Assembly: GCA_054600435.1 (NCBI GenBank)
Contig: BAAIJX010000002.1
Location: 124,001-188,000, forward strand
Length of the DNA stretch: 64,000 nucleotides
Source: Neophaeotheca triangularis
Taxonomy: Eukaryota
Reading direction: 5' to 3'
A program made the translations under genes and the position numbers. Shown piece by piece: positions 51,808 through 60,513 of this stretch (positions within the stretch are counted from its first letter, which is position 1; each line of letters opens with the position of its first letter). The notes beneath the pieces are model-generated. The model did not search any database, was not told the origin of the DNA, and was given only the letters and a program-made list of their open reading frames with translations.

Positions 51808-52327
51808 CTAATTCGGCACCAAATGAAAGCCCTGCATAGCCTTCTTGACAGCCGCAACATTCAGTCCAGAGTCCAAATAAATGGCCCCGAGCAGCGCTTC
51901 CACAGCCGTCGCGAGCTTCTTGTCCGACAGCCCGAACATCTCGTCGTGGCGATCGGCCGGCACGATCCAGTTGCTGAAACCCGCGTACCGGCCGGCGCGC
52001 GCAAGGTTCGCGTTGCTGAGAACGCCCGAGACTTCGTTGCTGGCCGTCGCTTTGTGGAAGGGGTTTCGTTAGTGGATGGGGGGTGGGTTCGGGAGACTGC
52101 GAGTTCGGGAGCGAACCTGTGGTTGCGGCGCTGGGCATCCATTCTAGCAGGAGGACGGTTTTGATGACGCTGTCGCCTAGGAGCGCGAGGCGGTTGTTGT
52201 GGTTGATGCTGCCTGGTACGTGTCTTTGGTTGATGGCTTTCCAAATCAAGTCGAGGTCGGTGAAGGTGTGGCCGGTGAAGGCTCTGATACCTTCTTGGAC
52301 CGCTTCGCAGATGATGAGATCTGCCAT
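51808..52327 (-). CDS. Stand-alone RNase III-domain protein A (150 aa); exons 52327-52117, 52049-51808
   Basis: GHTFTDLDLI..NNRLALLGDSVI..LSNANLA..KKLATAVEALLGAIYLDS; intron GTTCGC..ACTAAC..AAG, phase 1; no dsRBD. Confidence 0.88.
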
Positions 52328-53270
52328 GGTGGGGAGGTAGGTGTGGGTAGTTGCGTGGCGGGGGTATAGGTTGTTTGTGCGTGAGTGCCACTGGCGTATT
52401 CAACGGAACAGGCCAATGGTGGGTGAGAGGAGTGGTGGTGCGGTTCAGCGGTTGTGCGTTGCATGAATGTAAGCGAAGTTAATGGTAGTGGAAGGAGGAA
52501 GGTTTCGTGAAGAAGAGCTTCTGGATGACTTGGATGAGGTGAGGTGAGGTCCCAAGCGGGTAGTTGCTCCTTCCCAAACTTCACTTAATGCCCCCCACAC
52601 GTGACGACGCCACTCACGAAGCAGAGAGATCAAGTCGCTCCCGGCGAACATTCCATCCGATCTCAACCTGGTGATTGGTCTCTATAATCAATTTCATCCA
52701 AGCTGTCGACGCCCTTTCCATGATCGCCTCTTATAGCAAGAACCAGAGGACCAAGCCTGTGACACATCCAACGCTCCTAAACAATCCAGGCATGAACAAC
52801 TCTCGGTGACCATCCGACTCGAGAATCCTCCGCACGGTCGTTCGACGTCGCTGTCTCCGCTCGACTATCCCTTCGATGCTGATAGCGCTTCCCGGGTCGA
52901 CGACATGTTTGTATTGCCAGACACTTCGAGCTTCTCTGTATCCCTCGTGGAAACAGTTTGTGCTACGATTCCTCGCCAAGGGTGGAGTTTGTGTGATCCA
53001 TCACGAAAGATTCTTCAACAAGATGAAGTCGGAGGTGTATTCTCTTCCCGTCTCGGCATCAGGCTTTCTCTTTCAACAGTCACCGTACTTGTATCCATCG
53101 TGATCATCTCTAGCTTGTATAAATGAGTCGGCAAGGTTGAATAGTACAGTATGAATTTAGGCTTAGTGGTATTATTTTGCTTCTTCGCCAGGTAACAAGG
53201 AGCATGCCGCTCCTTCGCCTCGAACAACGTTACATTTAGCCAGAGCGGCCCGGAAGGCCTGGGAACAGTT

Positions 53271-54907
53271 CTACCTGACGTCATTCTGTTTCCCTTGCTC
53301 GCGCAAATCAACCGATCCATCCAGCGACATGGCTCGCTGCTTGTCCAAGTCTATCTCTCCGATTTTACCAGTCCCGAGCATATCCCCGAAGCCTTCTCCA
53401 ATCTCTTCCAGTGACTTGCCTCCAGTCTCTGGTAGGAAGAAGAAGTAGATCAGGGCTGCAGCGCAGTTTGTGGCAATGAACAAAGAGTAGTACCTCCACG
53501 ATACGTCGCGGATAGCAAGCGGCGTGACCTGCGAAAGGGCGATTGCAACGACCGCTTTAGTAAAGACGGCGAAAGCCAGACCCTTCGCACGCAGGGCCGT
53601 TGGCAACAGCTCGCTGGGCACGACCCAGATCATGGCGTTAAAGAAGACGGCGTAGCAGAAGGAGTAGAGGAAGATGAAGGCAATCGAAGCACGAGCGCCA
53701 GCTTGATTCGATGAGGCCGTTCCGTCGGGGTTGGATCCGAACTCGGCGCTTAATGCCATGCAAATGGCGAGCATGACGCTCAAAGCAATCGATCCGGACC
53801 ATAGGGTAATTTTGCGCGGCCATCGATCGGCGACGACTACGAGGTAGAAGATTTGACCGAGAATACCCATCATGCCGTAAACACCGCTAATTAATAGAGC
53901 CGTCTGACCGGTGAATCCAACTGCGTCGTAGAAGATGTTCTGAAAGTTCTGAATGACCGAGGAACCGGACAGCTGCCCCATGGTCACGATGAAGGCGGCT
54001 AGAGCAGTCCGCTTGATATACCTCTTGCTGAACATGGACCGGACGGATTGTATCCACGACAGATTCAACGACTGCTCGAAACGAATCTGTTGCTGGATCT
54101 GCAACAGCTCTTGGTCGGCCAGCCCGTCGGAACCGTTCCCGTGTAATTTGATCAACGTGTTTTTCGCTTCCTCGTGACGGTCCTGCTGGACAACTGCACA
54201 AAAAAGTCAGCTCCTGTTTACCAGTGATGGTGTGAGAAGAGCTGGAAGACTTACGCCAACGTGGGGAGAATGGGACGAAGAACAGCAAGCCGGCCATGAG
54301 CACGGGAATGGGGATTTGCATGCCAAGCGGCACTCGCCATTGCACGTCTCCAGAGGCGAAGGATCCAGCGTAGCCGATCCAGTTCGCGACGCCGAAGCCG
54401 ATCGCGATCATCATACCTTGCATGCCCACCAAGAAGCCTCGCGTCGATGGTGGTGCGACTTCTGCCAAGTACATGGGTACAAGAGACAGAAGCTGCCCGG
54501 AAGAGATGCCTCCGACCAGTCGGCCCACGATGAGCATACCAGGGTTGACGGCGGCGCATTGCAGGATTCCCGCCACGATGTTGAGGAATAAAGACAATTC
54601 CATGGTCCAGCGTCGACTGAACTTATCGGCAAGGTAGCCCACCGTCAAACCCCCAACGGCTTGACCGGCGTTGTACACCGAGACGATGGCGCCCGAGAGC
54701 TGGACATCCTCCCTAGACGGGCCATACATGTAGACTCGGAAGGAATCGTGTCCGAAGGTTGTAGCGACAATGCCTGAGTTCCGGTCGTCAGCTTGAGGTT
54801 CACTGTTGACATTGTAAGGAAAACGATCACGTACCCGAATCGAGGCCATAATTGAAGCCGCCCAGTGCTACCACACAGGCAATAAGAAGGATAATTGGTC
54901 GAATCAT
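53271..54907 (-). CDS. MFS sugar porter; exons 54907-54835, 54773-54255, 54193-53271
   Basis: LGGFNYGLDSG, ADKFSRR, PMYLAEVAP..RG, PFSPRWL, QLSG, SELLP..LRAKG, PETGGKSLEEI. Confidence 0.92.
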
Positions 54908-55349
54908 TGTCGAGTGTATAAAGTACAGGTACAAGCCCGGGGTTGACGTTCGCAATCGATCTCTTTCTCCTCAAGGCTGCTTCTTATATCTACACCTTCA
55001 GTGTTTTTGCTCCCGCCCTAGTCCTCGGCAATGTGATACAGCAGCTCATTGCCGTAGTCGACGATTCTTCGAGATCTACATCGCCAAGTGCACCGGGTGA
55101 TCGAGAAGCGAGACACGTGAGTGCTATTGAAGGGACCGAAGGCATCCGATGACCAATTTAGCGAGCCTAAGAGCAGCCAAGTCGGTTACTCCAATCGACC
55201 TTCTATACTTGATGCTACCGTTTCGAAGCCAATCCCCACGGTGCCCCAGATCCCCCGGGTTTTCGCTCGCCACACTGGACGATTGCCTCTCCAAGCCTTA
55301 TTACCGTGGGGGTTGACAAGGGCTCCCCCCGCTTCAGGGGTGATATGTT

Positions 55350-55366
55350 CGGTGCGAGATACACCG
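55350..55366. promoter_or_regulatory. CGG-N11-CCG Zn2Cys6 site (RhaR/Gal4-type) in divergent promoter
   Basis: CGGTGCGAGATACACCG, with extended dyad CGGTG/CACCG, lies between the transporter and GH78 start codons. Confidence 0.55.
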
Positions 55367-55580
55367 AGTATCGAACAAGTACCGAGGATTGCTCTAGTAT
55401 GCGTGGGAGCTGACCGCCTTACCCAACCTCACCTCGGTCCAGCACACCCCGTGGAATTGAAAACACTGGGGCCGTTGTCGTAGAGCAGTCGTAGGTGCAA
55501 GGCAAGATGCAGACAGTACTCGTTTATAACAGACGAGGCGAGGGAGGGTTTTACGCTTGTTCAAGCATCAGTCCATCGCC

Positions 55581-58337
55581 ATGGCAAACCCCAGAGTTAC
55601 GCCCCCGACGTTCGAACACCACCACAGCGGCCTAGGTATCGGTGTCAGTCGCCCGCGCATTTCATGGCGCTTCCTTGCTGGCGAAGAAACGGCCTCCGCT
55701 TGGGAACAAACGAGTTACGAAGTCGAGATTGCGCTTCAAGGTAGCCAACCCACGACCTACAGCGTTGACGGCTCCCAGTCGATTGTCGTTCCCTGGCCAG
55801 GTGAAGCCCTCCGATCGCGACAGTCTGCCGTTGTACGAGTGCGCTCGTTCGGAATCTCAGCGAATTCATCGAACCCAACGCCCACTGATTGGTCCAAACC
55901 CTCAACAGTGGAAGCAGCATTGTTGCACGATGAAGATTGGGGAGCTCAATTCATCACTTCCACCTCGCGCGTTCGTCATCCGGATGGTCCTTTCCAGCCC
56001 CTAAGGTTCCGTAAAACTTTCGAACTGCCGCAGGATCGCAAAATCGCAAGAGCGCGTTTGTACGTCACGGCGCTGGGCATCTTCGATGTGTACGTCGACG
56101 GGCGTGCGACGAGCGATGAGCTTCTAGCACCTGGCTGGACGAGCTACAGTCACAGGCTGACCTACCGAACTCTTGATGTCACCAATTCATTGGAAAAGGA
56201 TGGCACCACCCATGTTGTCTGCGCGGAGTTAGCGGAAGGCTGGTATGCTGGACGGCTCGGTTTCTTGGGTGGGAAGCGGGATATCTATGGCGAAGACCTC
56301 GCAATCATGGCCCAGCTCGAAGTAACGTTCGATGGAGAGGATCAACAGCCCTGGAGGCTGATTTCGGACGAAAGCTGGCAATGGACCAAGAGCGCAATCC
56401 AGCGAAGTGAGTTTTACGACGGCGAGGTTTACGACGCTTCCAACGAGTTTGACTGGCTGGGTCCTAGTATCGAACATCAGCCGGAAGCATCGTGGACGGC
56501 GGCAAAAGCTCTGCCTCCGATTGCTGCAAGGCTGGCCACGTTGGACGCGCCTCCCGTCCGGGTCACGGAAAAGCTGCCCCCGGTCGAGATATTCCAGAGC
56601 AAGAGCGGCAGGACCGTCGTCGACTTCGGCCAGAATCTAGTTGGAAAGGTCGAGGTGCATCTCCCGGAGCTGCCTCGAGGAAGTCAGATCACACTGAGGC
56701 ATGCAGAAGTGATGGAAAACGGCGAGCTTGGTGTGCGGCCCCTTCGTGAAGCGAGATCCGAGGACATTTACATCTCTTCCGGCAAAGGGCCAGTGACATG
56801 GACACCGACATTCGCGTTCCATGGCTTCCGATTCGTGCAAGTGGACGGGTGGAAGGTTGCGAAGTCGGACATTGAAGCGTTGGTTATGCATAGTGATATG
56901 CCTCGACGAGGAGAGTTTTCATGCTCCAACAGCTGGGTCAACAAACTGCATGAGAATGTGGTCTGGTCGATGCGAGGCAATTTCGTCTCCATTCCTACTG
57001 ATTGCCCGCAGCGGGATGAGCGTCTTGGATGGACCGGAGATATCCAGGCTTTTACGCCTTCTGCCTCTTTCCTGTACGACACTTCAAGCTTTCTTGGAAG
57101 CTGGTTGGAGGATGTGATGGACGAGCAGTTGGAGTCAGGCAAGGGAGGCATCCCACCCCTGGTAGTCCCCGGGGCCGCACTTCCACCAAACTGGCCCCAT
57201 ATGCCACAGGCAGTTTGGGATGATGTGACCGTACTCACTCCTATGGATTTGTTCCGTGCCAATGGTGATAAGGCAGTACTGGAGCGGCAACTCCCAAGCA
57301 TGAAGGCCTGGCTCGACCAAGGTATCGATCGAGGAGACGACGGTCTCTGGAATCCCGATAGATGGCAATTATCGGACTGGCTGGACCCCGGCGCTCCGCC
57401 CATGGATCCCGGGTACTCACGAACAGACAATGTTATGGTTGCCGATGCCTATCTTGTCCATGTCACAAGGACAATGTCCGAAGTCTGCAGCGTTCTTGGA
57501 CATGCCGAGCTCGCCAAGCAGTACAGTGGTGATGCCGACCGTCTCAGGAGCCTTTTCCAGCACAAATACATCACCCCGGCGGGTCACCTCATGAGCAACA
57601 CGCAAACAGGTCTCGCGTTGGCCATTCAATTCGGCTTGTACACGGATCAAAAAAGTCTGTCAGTGGCCGGGCAAGATTTACGAAAGCAAGTTCGTGCTGC
57701 CAAGTTTCACATTAGCACGGGCTTTGCGGGAACGCCGGTAGTCACCCACGCCCTTACGACCACCGCACAGTCACAGCTGGCCTATCGTATGCTGCTCGAA
57801 AAGACATGTCCGTCCTGGTTGTATCCAGTAAGCATGGGAGCCACGACAGTCTGGGAGCGCTGGGATTCCATGCTAGAAGATGGATCGATCAACCCAGGCA
57901 AGATGACGTCCTTCAACCATTACGCTTTCGGCTCCGTTGCAAACTGGCTGCACAAGACTGTCGGCGGAATTAGCCCAGCTGAACCTGGCTGGAGGAAAAT
58001 CTGCGTGCGACCGGTACCTGGCGGGAACATCACAAGCGCACGTGTGTCGTTTGACGGTCCATTCGGAATGATAGATTGCTCCTGGAGTCTGAAAAAGGAC
58101 CGAGCAGAGAGAGAGCCACAGAAATTTGAAATGTCTCTGGTGGTACCGCCAAATTCGTCGGCGGAGGTCACGCTACCAGGTGATCTCGAGCAGTCAATCC
58201 AGGGCAAGACGAAGAAGTCGGTCGTTGTAAAGAGCGGCAGACATGTCTTTTCCTGTGATTATGATGCGGGTGAATGGCCTCCAAGCGCAATTTATGCTGC
58301 CAACCAGAAGGTTCCCAAGCCGGACATAGCAGAGTAG
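55581..58337 (+). CDS. Alpha-L-rhamnosidase, GH78, intronless, no signal peptide
   Basis: LAPGWTSY, VVDFGQNLVG, FHGFRFV, SIPTDCPQRDERLGWTGD, GATTVWERWD, MTSFNHYAFG. Confidence 0.95.
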   Translation: MANPRVTPPTFEHHHSGLGIGVSRPRISWRFLAGEETASAWEQTSYEVEIALQGSQPTTYSVDGSQSIVVPWPGEALRSRQSAVVRVRSFGISANSSNPTPTDWSKPSTVEAALLHDEDWGAQFITSTSRVRHPDGPFQPLRFRKTFELPQDRKIARARLYVTALGIFDVYVDGRATSDELLAPGWTSYSHRLTYRTLDVTNSLEKDGTTHVVCAELAEGWYAGRLGFLGGKRDIYGEDLAIMAQLEVTFDGEDQQPWRLISDESWQWTKSAIQRSEFYDGEVYDASNEFDWLGPSIEHQPEASWTAAKALPPIAARLATLDAPPVRVTEKLPPVEIFQSKSGRTVVDFGQNLVGKVEVHLPELPRGSQITLRHAEVMENGELGVRPLREARSEDIYISSGKGPVTWTPTFAFHGFRFVQVDGWKVAKSDIEALVMHSDMPRRGEFSCSNSWVNKLHENVVWSMRGNFVSIPTDCPQRDERLGWTGDIQAFTPSASFLYDTSSFLGSWLEDVMDEQLESGKGGIPPLVVPGAALPPNWPHMPQAVWDDVTVLTPMDLFRANGDKAVLERQLPSMKAWLDQGIDRGDDGLWNPDRWQLSDWLDPGAPPMDPGYSRTDNVMVADAYLVHVTRTMSEVCSVLGHAELAKQYSGDADRLRSLFQHKYITPAGHLMSNTQTGLALAIQFGLYTDQKSLSVAGQDLRKQVRAAKFHISTGFAGTPVVTHALTTTAQSQLAYRMLLEKTCPSWLYPVSMGATTVWERWDSMLEDGSINPGKMTSFNHYAFGSVANWLHKTVGGISPAEPGWRKICVRPVPGGNITSARVSFDGPFGMIDCSWSLKKDRAEREPQKFEMSLVVPPNSSAEVTLPGDLEQSIQGKTKKSVVVKSGRHVFSCDYDAGEWPPSAIYAANQKVPKPDIAE

Positions 58338-58771
58338 AGTAGGCTAGACATCAAGTTAGCATGCCTTCGGCAATGAATGTCGAACATCGGAGATCGACTT
58401 AGACGTGTGAAGTCCCGTTCATCCGTTGCGCCTAGACATGTCTTGAGTACTCGTGTCTTTCCTCAAGACATGTCTTTCACCAGACACAGGTTCCGACTCG
58501 AAGACACCTCTCTGCTTTTCGAATGTGAGTACTCGAGACGATATATGTATGGCCTTCGCAGCAAGCCACAACTGTTCAATCTTCCCACTCATACGTTCAC
58601 CTGCTTGTGCTGGCTCATTAAGGTCATTCCTAGGTACTTTTCTTCAATCGTCCATTCGCCCTTCTTCGGACGAGAACAAGCGTCGATCGATACCCGGACC
58701 AATATTGATTGCTGGCAATCACACCCCTAAACTCGGAACTCGGAACTACAGGCAGCGCCTTACAACTCACA

Positions 58772-59322
58772 ATGGGGATCAAGATCGCTCGTTGCGCGAA
58801 GCCAGATACCACTGAGTTCGTCGAACACCTACTCAACTATACTTTCAAAGACACCTCGCTGGTAATGGAGGCAGTCCAACAAGCCAACCGCAGTTCCGGT
58901 AAACCAGATCAAAGGCTCGCCCTGCTCGGAGACACTCTCCTCAAGCACGCCGTGTTGCTCGATTGGTACCCGACCGCTAAGACAACCTGTAAGTACGTCT
59001 CATCAATGTTCCACACAGCGAGGCCAACTGACATCGGAGGTCTTTAGGTCAGGGACACTTTCTGGTGGTCAGGTTACTCAGCAATGCCAACCTCGCGGCT
59101 GCGGCTAGGGAAGTTGGTCTCGATAGACATATCGTCCGCCACCCACAGGCCATGCGCAATCCCAAGCACAGTCCCATTTCCAACTGGAAGGCCGCTACTG
59201 CGGTGGAAGCGCTGATCGCGGCGGTGTATCTCGATTCTGAATTCGATCTGGATGCGGTCAGGGCTGCGATGCAAGGTTTTGGACTGCTCCCGAAAGAAGC
59301 GAAGGCGTCGGAATCATCGTGA
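58772..59322 (+). CDS. Stand-alone RNase III-domain protein B (163 aa); exons 58772-58988, 59048-59322
   Basis: NYTFKDTSLV..DQRLALLGDTLL..LSNANLA..KAATAVEALIAAVYLDS; intron GTAAGT..ACTGAC..TAG, phase 1; no dsRBD. Confidence 0.88.
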
Positions 59323-59821: not shown

Positions 59822-59886
59822 AGGCAAGGCAAGGCAAGGCAAGGCGAGGCAAGGCAAGGCAAGGCAGAGTAAGGCAAAACAGAGCA
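59822..59886 (+). repeat. (AGGCA)n pentanucleotide microsatellite
   Basis: About 9 near-perfect AGGCA/AGGCG units, then degenerate copies. Confidence 0.9.
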
Positions 59887-60513
59887 TATTAAGAGAGAAA
59901 AATAAAAGGCAAGGAAATGGACTCGAGACTATCAAGAGATTATCAACAATTTTCGCTAAAGTCTTAGGGGTGGGTTTTTGGAGAGAGTAATGAAAGAGCG
60001 AGAAGATCCGTAGCCGTAGTGCATGATCCGTAGCTTGTAGTTACTACTATACCCCCCCTTTGTCGATCTGCTTTGCCTTGCCCTGCCCTGCTTTGCTCTG
60101 CTTTGCTTAAAACTGCCAAAACCCCATCGCTGTGCGAGAACTGAAGCTACCATGACCCGTCCGTACTGCCGTAACTCATTTACTACCGTAGTAGTCGGAC
60201 ATGACGCCAAGTCCTTGAACTCCCATCATACCGAGTCGTCGTGTGTCAGTCAATACACCACGTATAACCCCGGCTCAAAACGCCTTGCAATTCCCCCATT
60301 GACCCATAGCACATCGCAACCGAAGCAAATTCCACTCTCCAGCCTCCTCGGTATCTTGTCAGAGAAGCATGCTACCGCTCAGTTGATGAGAAGAAAATAA
60401 AAAGAACACTAACGCCCGCTTCCATATGATCACGCCCGCTTTTTCGCTCAAGCTCCCTTTTCCTCTCTCGCAGAATGTCGAGATTATTCGTAAGTAAGAT
60501 CGTAGACGCGCTC

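Follow-up and report, generated by a model that had tools for sequence, protein, structure and literature searches.

Enzymes of the RNase III family, namely bacterial RNase III, Rnt1, Drosha and Dicer, are treated as strict two-metal cutters of double-stranded RNA (dsRNA), and their degenerate relatives are treated as dead scaffolds. According to the excerpted text of PMC3867540, RNase III coordinates its two Mg ions through E40, D44, D107 and E110 (A. aeolicus numbering), of which E110 (E. coli E117) bridges both metals. The same excerpt describes cleavage both by E. coli RNase III lacking its dsRNA-binding domain (dsRBD) and by Mini-III, so that a dimer of nuclease domains can handle RNA without a dsRBD. 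In the fungus Mucor, the enzyme R3B2 carries Asn at the position of the signature Glu (E40) and is still a Mg-dependent RNase, acting on single-stranded RNA (ssRNA) only; the exchanges N52E and N52D left this ssRNA-only activity unchanged (PMC8136814, excerpt). Here we describe two genes, A and B, located in a stretch of 64,000 nucleotides (nt) from Neophaeotheca triangularis (assembly GCA_054600435.1, contig BAAIJX010000002.1, positions 124,001 to 188,000), which will be referred to as the window. Both encode a single RNase III-fold domain and belong to an unnamed family of filamentous ascomycetes in which two of the four metal-binding carboxylates are lost and the other two are conserved. 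Judged from their residues, A and B are probably not ordinary dsRNA cutters.

The active-site residues were assigned by aligning A and B to Dicer, Drosha and bacterial enzymes. The segments N-R-L-A-L-L-G-D of A and Q-R-L-A-L-L-G-D of B align to ERLEMLGD and QRLEFLGD of Dicer and to NERLEFLGD of Drosha, and the signature Glu is gone. At its position (E40 in A. aeolicus, E41 in E. coli) A has Ala48 and B has Ala50. The next carboxylate (D44/D45) is kept as Asp52 and Asp54, D107/D114 is replaced by Thr118 and Thr123, and E110/E117 is kept as Glu121 and Glu126; the additional position E37/E38 is occupied by Asn45 in A and Gln47 in B. Read as a string of five positions, this gives N-A-D-T-E for A and Q-A-D-T-E for B, with two of the four metal carboxylates retained.

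The same pattern was counted in a collected set of 364 proteins with 336 complete domains, 192 of which scored at least 100 bits against the family profile. In these 192 family domains the position of the first Glu (E41) is Ala in 188, Asp (D45) is kept in 183 and Glu (E117) in 184. The D114 position holds mostly Thr (88), followed by Ala (32), Ser (31), Asp (27), Gln (7) and Asn (5), and the E38 position Lys (121), Gln (32), Arg (23) or Glu (5). For domains of the Glu type, from ordinary RNase III and from Dicers, the highest score against this profile is 87.6 bits. Conservation of the Asp and the Glu at 95-96%, despite a mean column identity of about 26-36% in the family, argues for a retained metal site, whereas the loss of two ligands argues against the classical two-metal cut. 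A standard dsRNA nuclease, as envisaged in an earlier note on this DNA, is thus unlikely, with Ala48/Thr118 in A and Ala50/Thr123 in B at two of the carboxylates and the loss extending through the family.

Members of the family are approximately 145-170 amino acids (aa) long, consist of a single RNase III-fold domain and occur in six classes of Pezizomycotina, a range that rests on the named matches. These are Dothideomycetes (Hortaea, Teratosphaeria, Oleoguttula, Meristemomyces, Elasticomyces, Recurvomyces, Cryomyces, Parastagonospora, Plenodomus and Pseudocercospora), Lecanoromycetes (Psora, Physcia, Gyalolechia, Schaereria and Bacidia), Sordariomycetes (Diaporthe, Gaeumannomyces, Madurella and Cladorrhinum), Leotiomycetes (Botrytis, including B. 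cinerea BCIN_16g04530, Cadophora and Lachnellula), Eurotiomycetes (Penicillium) and Orbiliomycetes (Arthrobotrys). Most named species have only one or two members among the matches. Searching 1.84 billion cluster representatives (50% identity) with the family profile, which scores A at 157 bits, yielded 117 representatives at E ≤ 1e-30 and 8046 at E ≤ 1e-10, ordinary RNase III proteins being among the latter. The family motifs W-Y-P and S-N-A-N-L-A are found as DWYP in B and as the variant EWMP in A, and as SNANLA in both. In the protein atlas A is nearest to an Ascomycota cluster of 117 members. Its atlas neighbours by language-model features include three clusters, labelled mostly archaeal (Methanobacteriota), of proteins of 148-170 aa with a stand-alone RNase III domain.

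A Pfam scan of 17 longer family proteins for extra domains returned RNase III models only, plus a Dicer_dimer fragment in P0215. Among the best 150 representatives, P0133 (1310 aa), P0139 (786 aa) and P0184 (810 aa) contain two family-type domains per chain and no other Pfam domain, and may be either merged gene models or naturally occurring tandem pseudo-dimers. In P0139 and in P0184, one domain of the pair also lacks the L-G-D Asp (EASIE and LASTE). All source names in the family read "hypothetical", "RNase III domain-containing protein" or "ribonuclease III", none of them stating a function. A full-text literature search, with subscription journals outside its coverage, yielded no paper on the family and no match for the Botrytis locus tag, which agrees with the earlier statement that no functional description of such a linked pair in fungi was known; the supplementary tables of a fungal Dicer survey may list family proteins (PMC12663654, excerpt).

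Domain searches confirmed that the products are stand-alone RNase III-domain proteins. A matched PF00636 with 44.1 bits (cut-off 27) and PF14622 with 44.5 bits (cut-off 35), and exon 2 alone passed PF00636 in A (E = 4.9e-7) as well as in B (E = 7.4e-9, 36.8 bits). No Pfam domain beyond RNase III was found in either protein, consistent with the reported lack of dsRBD, PAZ and helicase domains. NCBIfam returned only TIGR02191 with 40.5 bits (cut-off 166.25), covering model positions 28-129 of 219, which represent the nuclease half. An AlphaFold2 model of A, built on a family alignment of 33 rows, is an ordinary all-helical RNase III domain (predicted local distance difference test, pLDDT, 94.4; predicted template modelling score, pTM, 0.89); the fold results refer to A only. 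The best Foldseek match of this model was E. coli RNase III (7r97, TMq 0.77), with a probability of 1.00 for many RNase III chains. Z values from VIA-align ranged from 15 to 18 overall, with 18.2 for plant RTL4/NFD2 (9h4a; root mean square deviation, rmsd, 2.1; 136 aligned), 17.6 for C. jejuni RNase III (rnc), 17.3 for fly Dicer-1 and 17.1 for mammalian mL44. Since these values are tied, the fold by itself does not assign A to a class.

At the sequence level, the family profile matched 43 solved chains. E. coli RNase III was the best single domain (74.6 bits), the two domains of Drosha scored 42 and 49 bits, Arabidopsis DCL1 came next, and Rnt1 reached 27 bits. A chain named Mini-III was present neither among these 43 matches nor among the 50 structure entries listed, and an unlisted family could still match. 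The designation "Mini-III-like" in the earlier note holds for the architecture only. No mitoribosomal chain among the solved chains was matched by the family profile at E ≤ 0.01, and PF22935 (mL44) gave no match for A and 17.4 bits for P0001, below the cut-off of 27 bits. Grouping with mL44 or mL57, an outcome that would have spoken against the genes as first interpreted, was thus not seen by sequence.

A homodimer of A was predicted with a score of 0.84 compared to 0.01 for the best control, in line with the dimer proposed before. The predicted interface is the usual one, comprising residues 41-74 and 129-135 and including the signature helix, and the runs showed 100% contact agreement with a partner pLDDT of at least 90. 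Of 30 proteins solved as one-chain pairs, 21 attained the score mark, compared to 0 of 23 single-chain proteins; for eukaryotic proteins the numbers were 17 of 29 pairs versus 0 of 30 single chains. With this interface, a valley of the usual kind probably lies between the two subunits. Identity between A and B is no higher at the interface (9/20) than elsewhere (55/128).

Both genes consist of two exons with intact frames and encode 150 aa (A) and 163 aa (B), as reported (Table 1). The lengths of exon 1 (211 nt in A and 217 nt in B) place both introns in phase 1, and the split codon directly follows W-x-P-x-A-x-T-T in A and B alike. All five motifs that had been listed as common to the pair (RLALLGD, LSNANLA, ATAVEAL, YLDS and AMQGF) were found in both. 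The start codons are 6445 nt apart with the 5′ ends facing each other and the 3′ ends pointing outward, in accordance with the described outward-facing arrangement and spacing of about 6.4 kb. In gene B, an alternative upstream AG at 59038-59039 would lead into a stop codon. The spliced model of A is identical, letter for letter, to the database protein P0007, labelled at NCBI as hypothetical protein of Neophaeotheca triangularis; an independent public annotation consequently uses the identical intron. The product of B, for which both length ranges were searched, was not found in the protein collection, so gene B may be missing from public annotation. Exon 1 of B is, however, present in P0036, a 91-aa open reading frame (ORF) of another assembly, with 72 of 72 residues identical. 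Compared with gene B, P0036 shows 0 changes in the 72 exon codons and 2 in the 18 read-through intron codons beyond the shared junction codon. The chance that both changes fall into the intron part is C(18,2)/C(90,2) = 0.038 (one-sided, our own arithmetic), which is a small hint of constraint on exon 1 of gene B.

The intron position was also traced in the family. Four metagenome gene calls of 160-163 aa (P0023, P0025, P0026 and P0027) contain 16-19 additional in-frame residues between W-Y-x-G-x-x-K-G and G-N-x-L-V-S, which is the site of the A and B introns. These inserts resemble an intron that a prokaryotic gene caller has translated, and the position is therefore probably a trait of the family rather than a mark of the pair. 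The position is indeed common to A and B, as noted before, but it probably belongs to the whole family.

Paralogy itself is evident from sequence comparison and phylogeny. A and B share 39% identity in exon 1 (E = 1e-13) and 46% in exon 2 (E = 3e-14); a global alignment has 64 identical columns out of 165, and identity ranges overall from 39 to 43%. Phylogeny was inferred by maximum likelihood from 49 rows, made up of A and B, 34 family members, 12 nuclease domains of bacterial RNase III and the bacterial-like P0064; Hortaea copies that were nearly identical, fragments and calls with intron read-through were excluded. In this tree A and B are sisters with a support of 99/94, as expected for the true paralogs that they had been taken for. 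Their branches have a length of 0.9 each compared to a median end branch of 0.45. A placement of B with other Capnodiales copies and without A was rejected by the approximately unbiased (AU) test (p = 0.028, difference in log-likelihood 11.0), for a group that was named after the tree had been seen and with long branches involved. Between A and B, the nonsynonymous divergence (dN) is 0.58 and the synonymous divergence (dS) 1.76 over 148 codons, resulting in a dN/dS of 0.33, which is only a rough value because dS is near saturation (proportion of synonymous differences, pS, 0.68) and is nevertheless far from 1, the value that would have counted against the genes. The sister placement and this ratio together indicate an old duplicate limited to the lineage, both copies of which are under purifying selection.

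The window has a G+C content of 51-59% and looks like fungal DNA. The gene order is A(-), transporter(-), rhamnosidase(+), B(+), and the rhamnosidase ORF also matches four more rhamnosidase domains (Table 1). As no functional tie is visible between the RNase III-like and the sugar genes, the arrangement is taken as incidental. When all six frames of the 64 kb were scanned with the family profile, which includes A and B themselves, only the four exon ORFs of the two genes matched, and no third copy or remnant was seen. Ten inverted pairs were found at the DNA level, all of them short and none linking the genes, so that no inverted repeat connects the flanks of A and B. An inverted segmental duplication was considered as the origin of the pair and rejected: no inverted repeat joins the flanks, and the DNA alignment of A and B shows saturated divergence. 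The linked pair as a special two-gene system, as suggested earlier, is given up in favour of a lineage-specific duplicate of a Pezizomycotina-wide family. Rfam detected no non-coding RNA in the window at the gathering threshold. Approximately 500 nt downstream of gene B lies an (AGGCA)n microsatellite of 11 copies, and about 200 nt beyond it a related repeat in opposite orientation; the two form an imperfect inverted pair of 40 nt with 80% complementarity.

Table 1. Positions of genes A and B and of neighbouring features in the window.
Feature	Position	Strand	Length	Details
Gene A exon 1	52117..52327	-	211 nt	ATG 52327..52325; residues 1-70 and one base, including N45-R-L-A48-L-L-G-D52; spliced product P0007
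Gene A intron	52050..52116	-	67 nt	Phase 1; GTTCGC...CACTAAC...AAG; splicing here reproduces P0007 exactly
Gene A exon 2	51808..52049	-	242 nt	Stop TAG 51810..51808; SNANLA, A-T118-A-V-E121-A-L, YLDS
Gene B exon 1	58772..58988	+	217 nt	ATG 58772; residues 1-72 and one base, including Q47-R-L-A50-L-L-G-D54, DWYP
Gene B intron	58989..59047	+	59 nt	Phase 1; GTAAGT...CTGAC...TAG
Gene B exon 2	59048..59322	+	275 nt	Stop TGA 59320..59322; SNANLA, A-T123-A-V-E126-A-L, YLDS
Sugar transporter gene (major facilitator superfamily, MFS)	53271..54867	-		At least 2 exon ORFs; upstream of and co-oriented with A; PF00083, E = 3.6e-44 and 6.2e-37
GH78 alpha-L-rhamnosidase	55581..58337	+	918 aa	Single ORF; upstream of and co-oriented with B; PF17389, E = 2.2e-124
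(AGGCA)n microsatellite	59822-59877			
Related repeat, opposite orientation	60067-60108			

A parallel to the fungal active site was found in bacteria. On a contig of Rokubacteria/Methylomirabilota (L001:4001-4444), an ORF of 147 aa with an RNase III domain and without dsRBD directly follows fabF; contigs L002-L030 and L081-L085 belong to the same observation. In five of five Rokubacteria/Methylomirabilota genomes, the only PF00636 match has the coordinates of the 147-aa gene, the ORF having been read in L001 only. Proteins related to this ORF show E/S-A-D-T/S-E at the five active-site positions. Since the Ala and Thr/Ser losses occur in the fungal family and in these proteins, the double loss arose at least twice. 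The comparisons with R3B2 and Rokubacteria make it plausible, by analogy, that a site of this kind is capable of activity.

E40 and D107 both ligate one and the same metal, and it is exactly these two positions that are lost. For A, B and the family we favour, with somewhat less than even confidence, a site that binds a single metal and whose RNase chemistry is reduced or altered. In the reading as a whole, for which the odds are about even, a lineage duplication gave rise to A and B as functional sister paralogues, each keeping the RNase III fold with the canonical dimer helix and acting most likely as a homodimer, and an A/B heterodimer would be possible. The dimer would grip double-stranded or structured RNA in the valley between its subunits. 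Its catalytic centre appears rebuilt, with the signature Glu changed to Ala and the first Asp of DxxE usually to Thr, Ala or Ser, the L-G-D Asp and the V-E-A Glu staying near invariant; from this we infer that one metal site was lost and the other kept. The proteins might accordingly be metal-dependent RNA binders or RNases with a slow, nicking or substrate-restricted cut, not classical two-metal dsRNA cutters. A bolder version, which we regard as rather improbable, would make the family a distinct catalytic RNase III class of filamentous ascomycetes: a stand-alone homodimer without metal site A (Glu to Ala, Asp to Thr, Ser or Ala) would use one metal on the surviving Asp and Glu, often aided by Lys at E38, and cut or nick restricted RNA, Rokubacteria would represent an independent invention, and an A/B heterodimer with an asymmetric valley could form.

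Several points weigh against a one-metal enzyme. A dead enzyme would be expected to have lost metal ligands in this way (two of four), and the conserved Asp and Glu could be structural. A (Asn) and B (Gln) lack the Lys that most members have at E38. The Ala count of 188/192 is partly circular, as the profile was made from Ala-bearing members and the 100-bit line was set after the gap above 87.6 bits had been seen. The dimer score of 0.84 may reflect memory, given that RNase III dimers have already been solved, and the family alignment was not used in that run. The dN/dS of 0.33 suffers from the near saturation of dS (pS 0.68), and the Rokubacteria genomes are metagenome bins whose completeness is not established. 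Finally, the assignment of carboxylates to metals is general background, the excerpted text of PMC3867540 giving only the bridging role of E110.

One rival is a non-catalytic pseudo-enzyme, the dimer of which would bind dsRNA or structured RNA without ever cutting it, as a shield, a sensor or a competitor of Dicer or Rnt1 for dsRNA. With two of four catalytic carboxylates gone family-wide, with fold and predicted dimer interface retained, and with E. coli RNase III binding dsRNA without metal (PMC3867540, excerpt), this is the strongest rival, although we consider it unlikely on balance. A pure binder needs neither the Asp nor the Glu, which are nevertheless present in 183 and 184 of the 192 domains, and carboxylates without metal in the RNA valley would repel RNA. 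Moreover, R3B2 remains an RNA-cutting enzyme despite the missing signature Glu (PMC8136814, excerpt). The dimer helix, which is conserved, would also suit a subunit that pairs A or B with a catalytic RNase III domain, or A with B, in an asymmetric dimer cutting one strand or none. Degenerate RNase III proteins serve as such silent partners in trypanosome editosomes, and the two-domain chains P0133, P0139 and P0184 would fit a hetero-pairing. These chains may, however, be merged gene models, and nothing points to a partner. In addition, conservation between A and B is not higher at the interface than outside it (9/20 versus 55/128), and most named species have only one or two family members among the matches; together this makes a silent subunit quite improbable.

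A minimal dsRNA endonuclease of the Mini-III kind with standard chemistry, either as a homodimer or as a split A/B enzyme, is given marginally less credit still. Size, the stand-alone RNase III domain, the missing dsRBD and the predicted dimer would all agree with it, but the signature Glu and the first DxxE Asp are absent in both genes, and the 43 solved matches contain no chain named Mini-III and are led by E. coli RNase III at 74.6 bits. Least probable of all, and by a wide distance from the favoured one-metal site, are decaying or functionless duplicates that merely retain open frames. Such a fate might explain the long branches (0.9 each) and the failure to find the product of B in the protein database; it is contradicted by intact frames, usable splice signals and the presence of all family motifs in both genes, by the dN/dS of 0.33 and by exon 1 of B, which is unchanged in a second assembly while the intron changed.

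What remains of the earlier reading as a whole is the RNase III fold, the stand-alone architecture, the paralogy and a likely dimer, whereas the label of a Mini-III-like nuclease and the linked pair as a system go too far. For the window itself the result is more modest, as it amounts to a lineage-specific duplicate and no new two-gene system, one copy of which, B, may be publicly unannotated. The family with its half active site is the more interesting finding than the pair. It is large, conserved and unstudied, with two of four metal ligands lost and the other two guarded, and thus offers a natural case for asking if a single metal suffices for an RNase III domain to function, and which substrate it would then act on. 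Its members occur in many ascomycetes that cause plant disease or are used industrially, among them Botrytis, Parastagonospora, Penicillium and Diaporthe; there is active research on RNA silencing and mycovirus defence in such fungi, yet surveys of fungal RNase III centre on Dicers.

Compared with known systems, A has the same fold as bacterial class 1 RNase III (E. coli rnc, 7R97; A. aeolicus, 2NUG), with TMq 0.77, Z 16.9 and rmsd 2.4 over 139 aligned residues, and the same predicted dimer helix, and the equivalents of D44/D45 and E110/E117 are kept in A and B. They differ from it in the missing dsRBD, in a TIGR02191 score of 40.5 bits below the equivalog cut-off of 166.25, and in the changes of E40/E41 to Ala, of D107/D114 to Thr and of E37/E38 to Asn or Gln (Lys in most of the family). 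Plant RTL4/NFD2 (9H4A), likewise a eukaryotic single RNase III domain with a poorly understood role, is the top structural match of A (Z 18.2), with others tied within about 1 Z; it belongs to another kingdom and is a weak sequence match (E = 4e-7, 32.9 bits, 21% identity). The catalytic residues of mitoribosomal mL44 are degenerate, and its RNase III fold superimposes on A with Z 17.1 and rmsd 3.4 over 140 aligned residues. By sequence, no mitoribosomal chain (mL44 or mL57) is matched at E ≤ 0.01, and PF22935 does not match A; the RNase III domain fills residues ~10-145 of 150, so that neither a targeting peptide nor a C-terminal module could be accommodated. Dicer and Drosha possess two tandem RNase III domains together with helicase, PAZ or dsRBD modules, whereas A and B have one domain only. 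Mini-III (MrnC; Firmicutes and plastids) keeps the full carboxylate set, of which A and B retain two of four. It resembles them in consisting of one RNase III domain of ~140-150 aa without dsRBD and in forming a homodimer, and differs in being demonstrably catalytic (PMC3867540, excerpt); A and B are, in addition, fungal nuclear genes with a spliceosomal intron. R3B2 of Mucorales, likened here by description only, differs in belonging to Mucoromycota, in three kept carboxylates, in its two dsRBDs and in having no RBM4, and it resembles the family as a fungal RNase III-fold homodimer in which the signature Glu (E40) is replaced (Asn52) and which displays an unusual activity (PMC8136814, excerpt).

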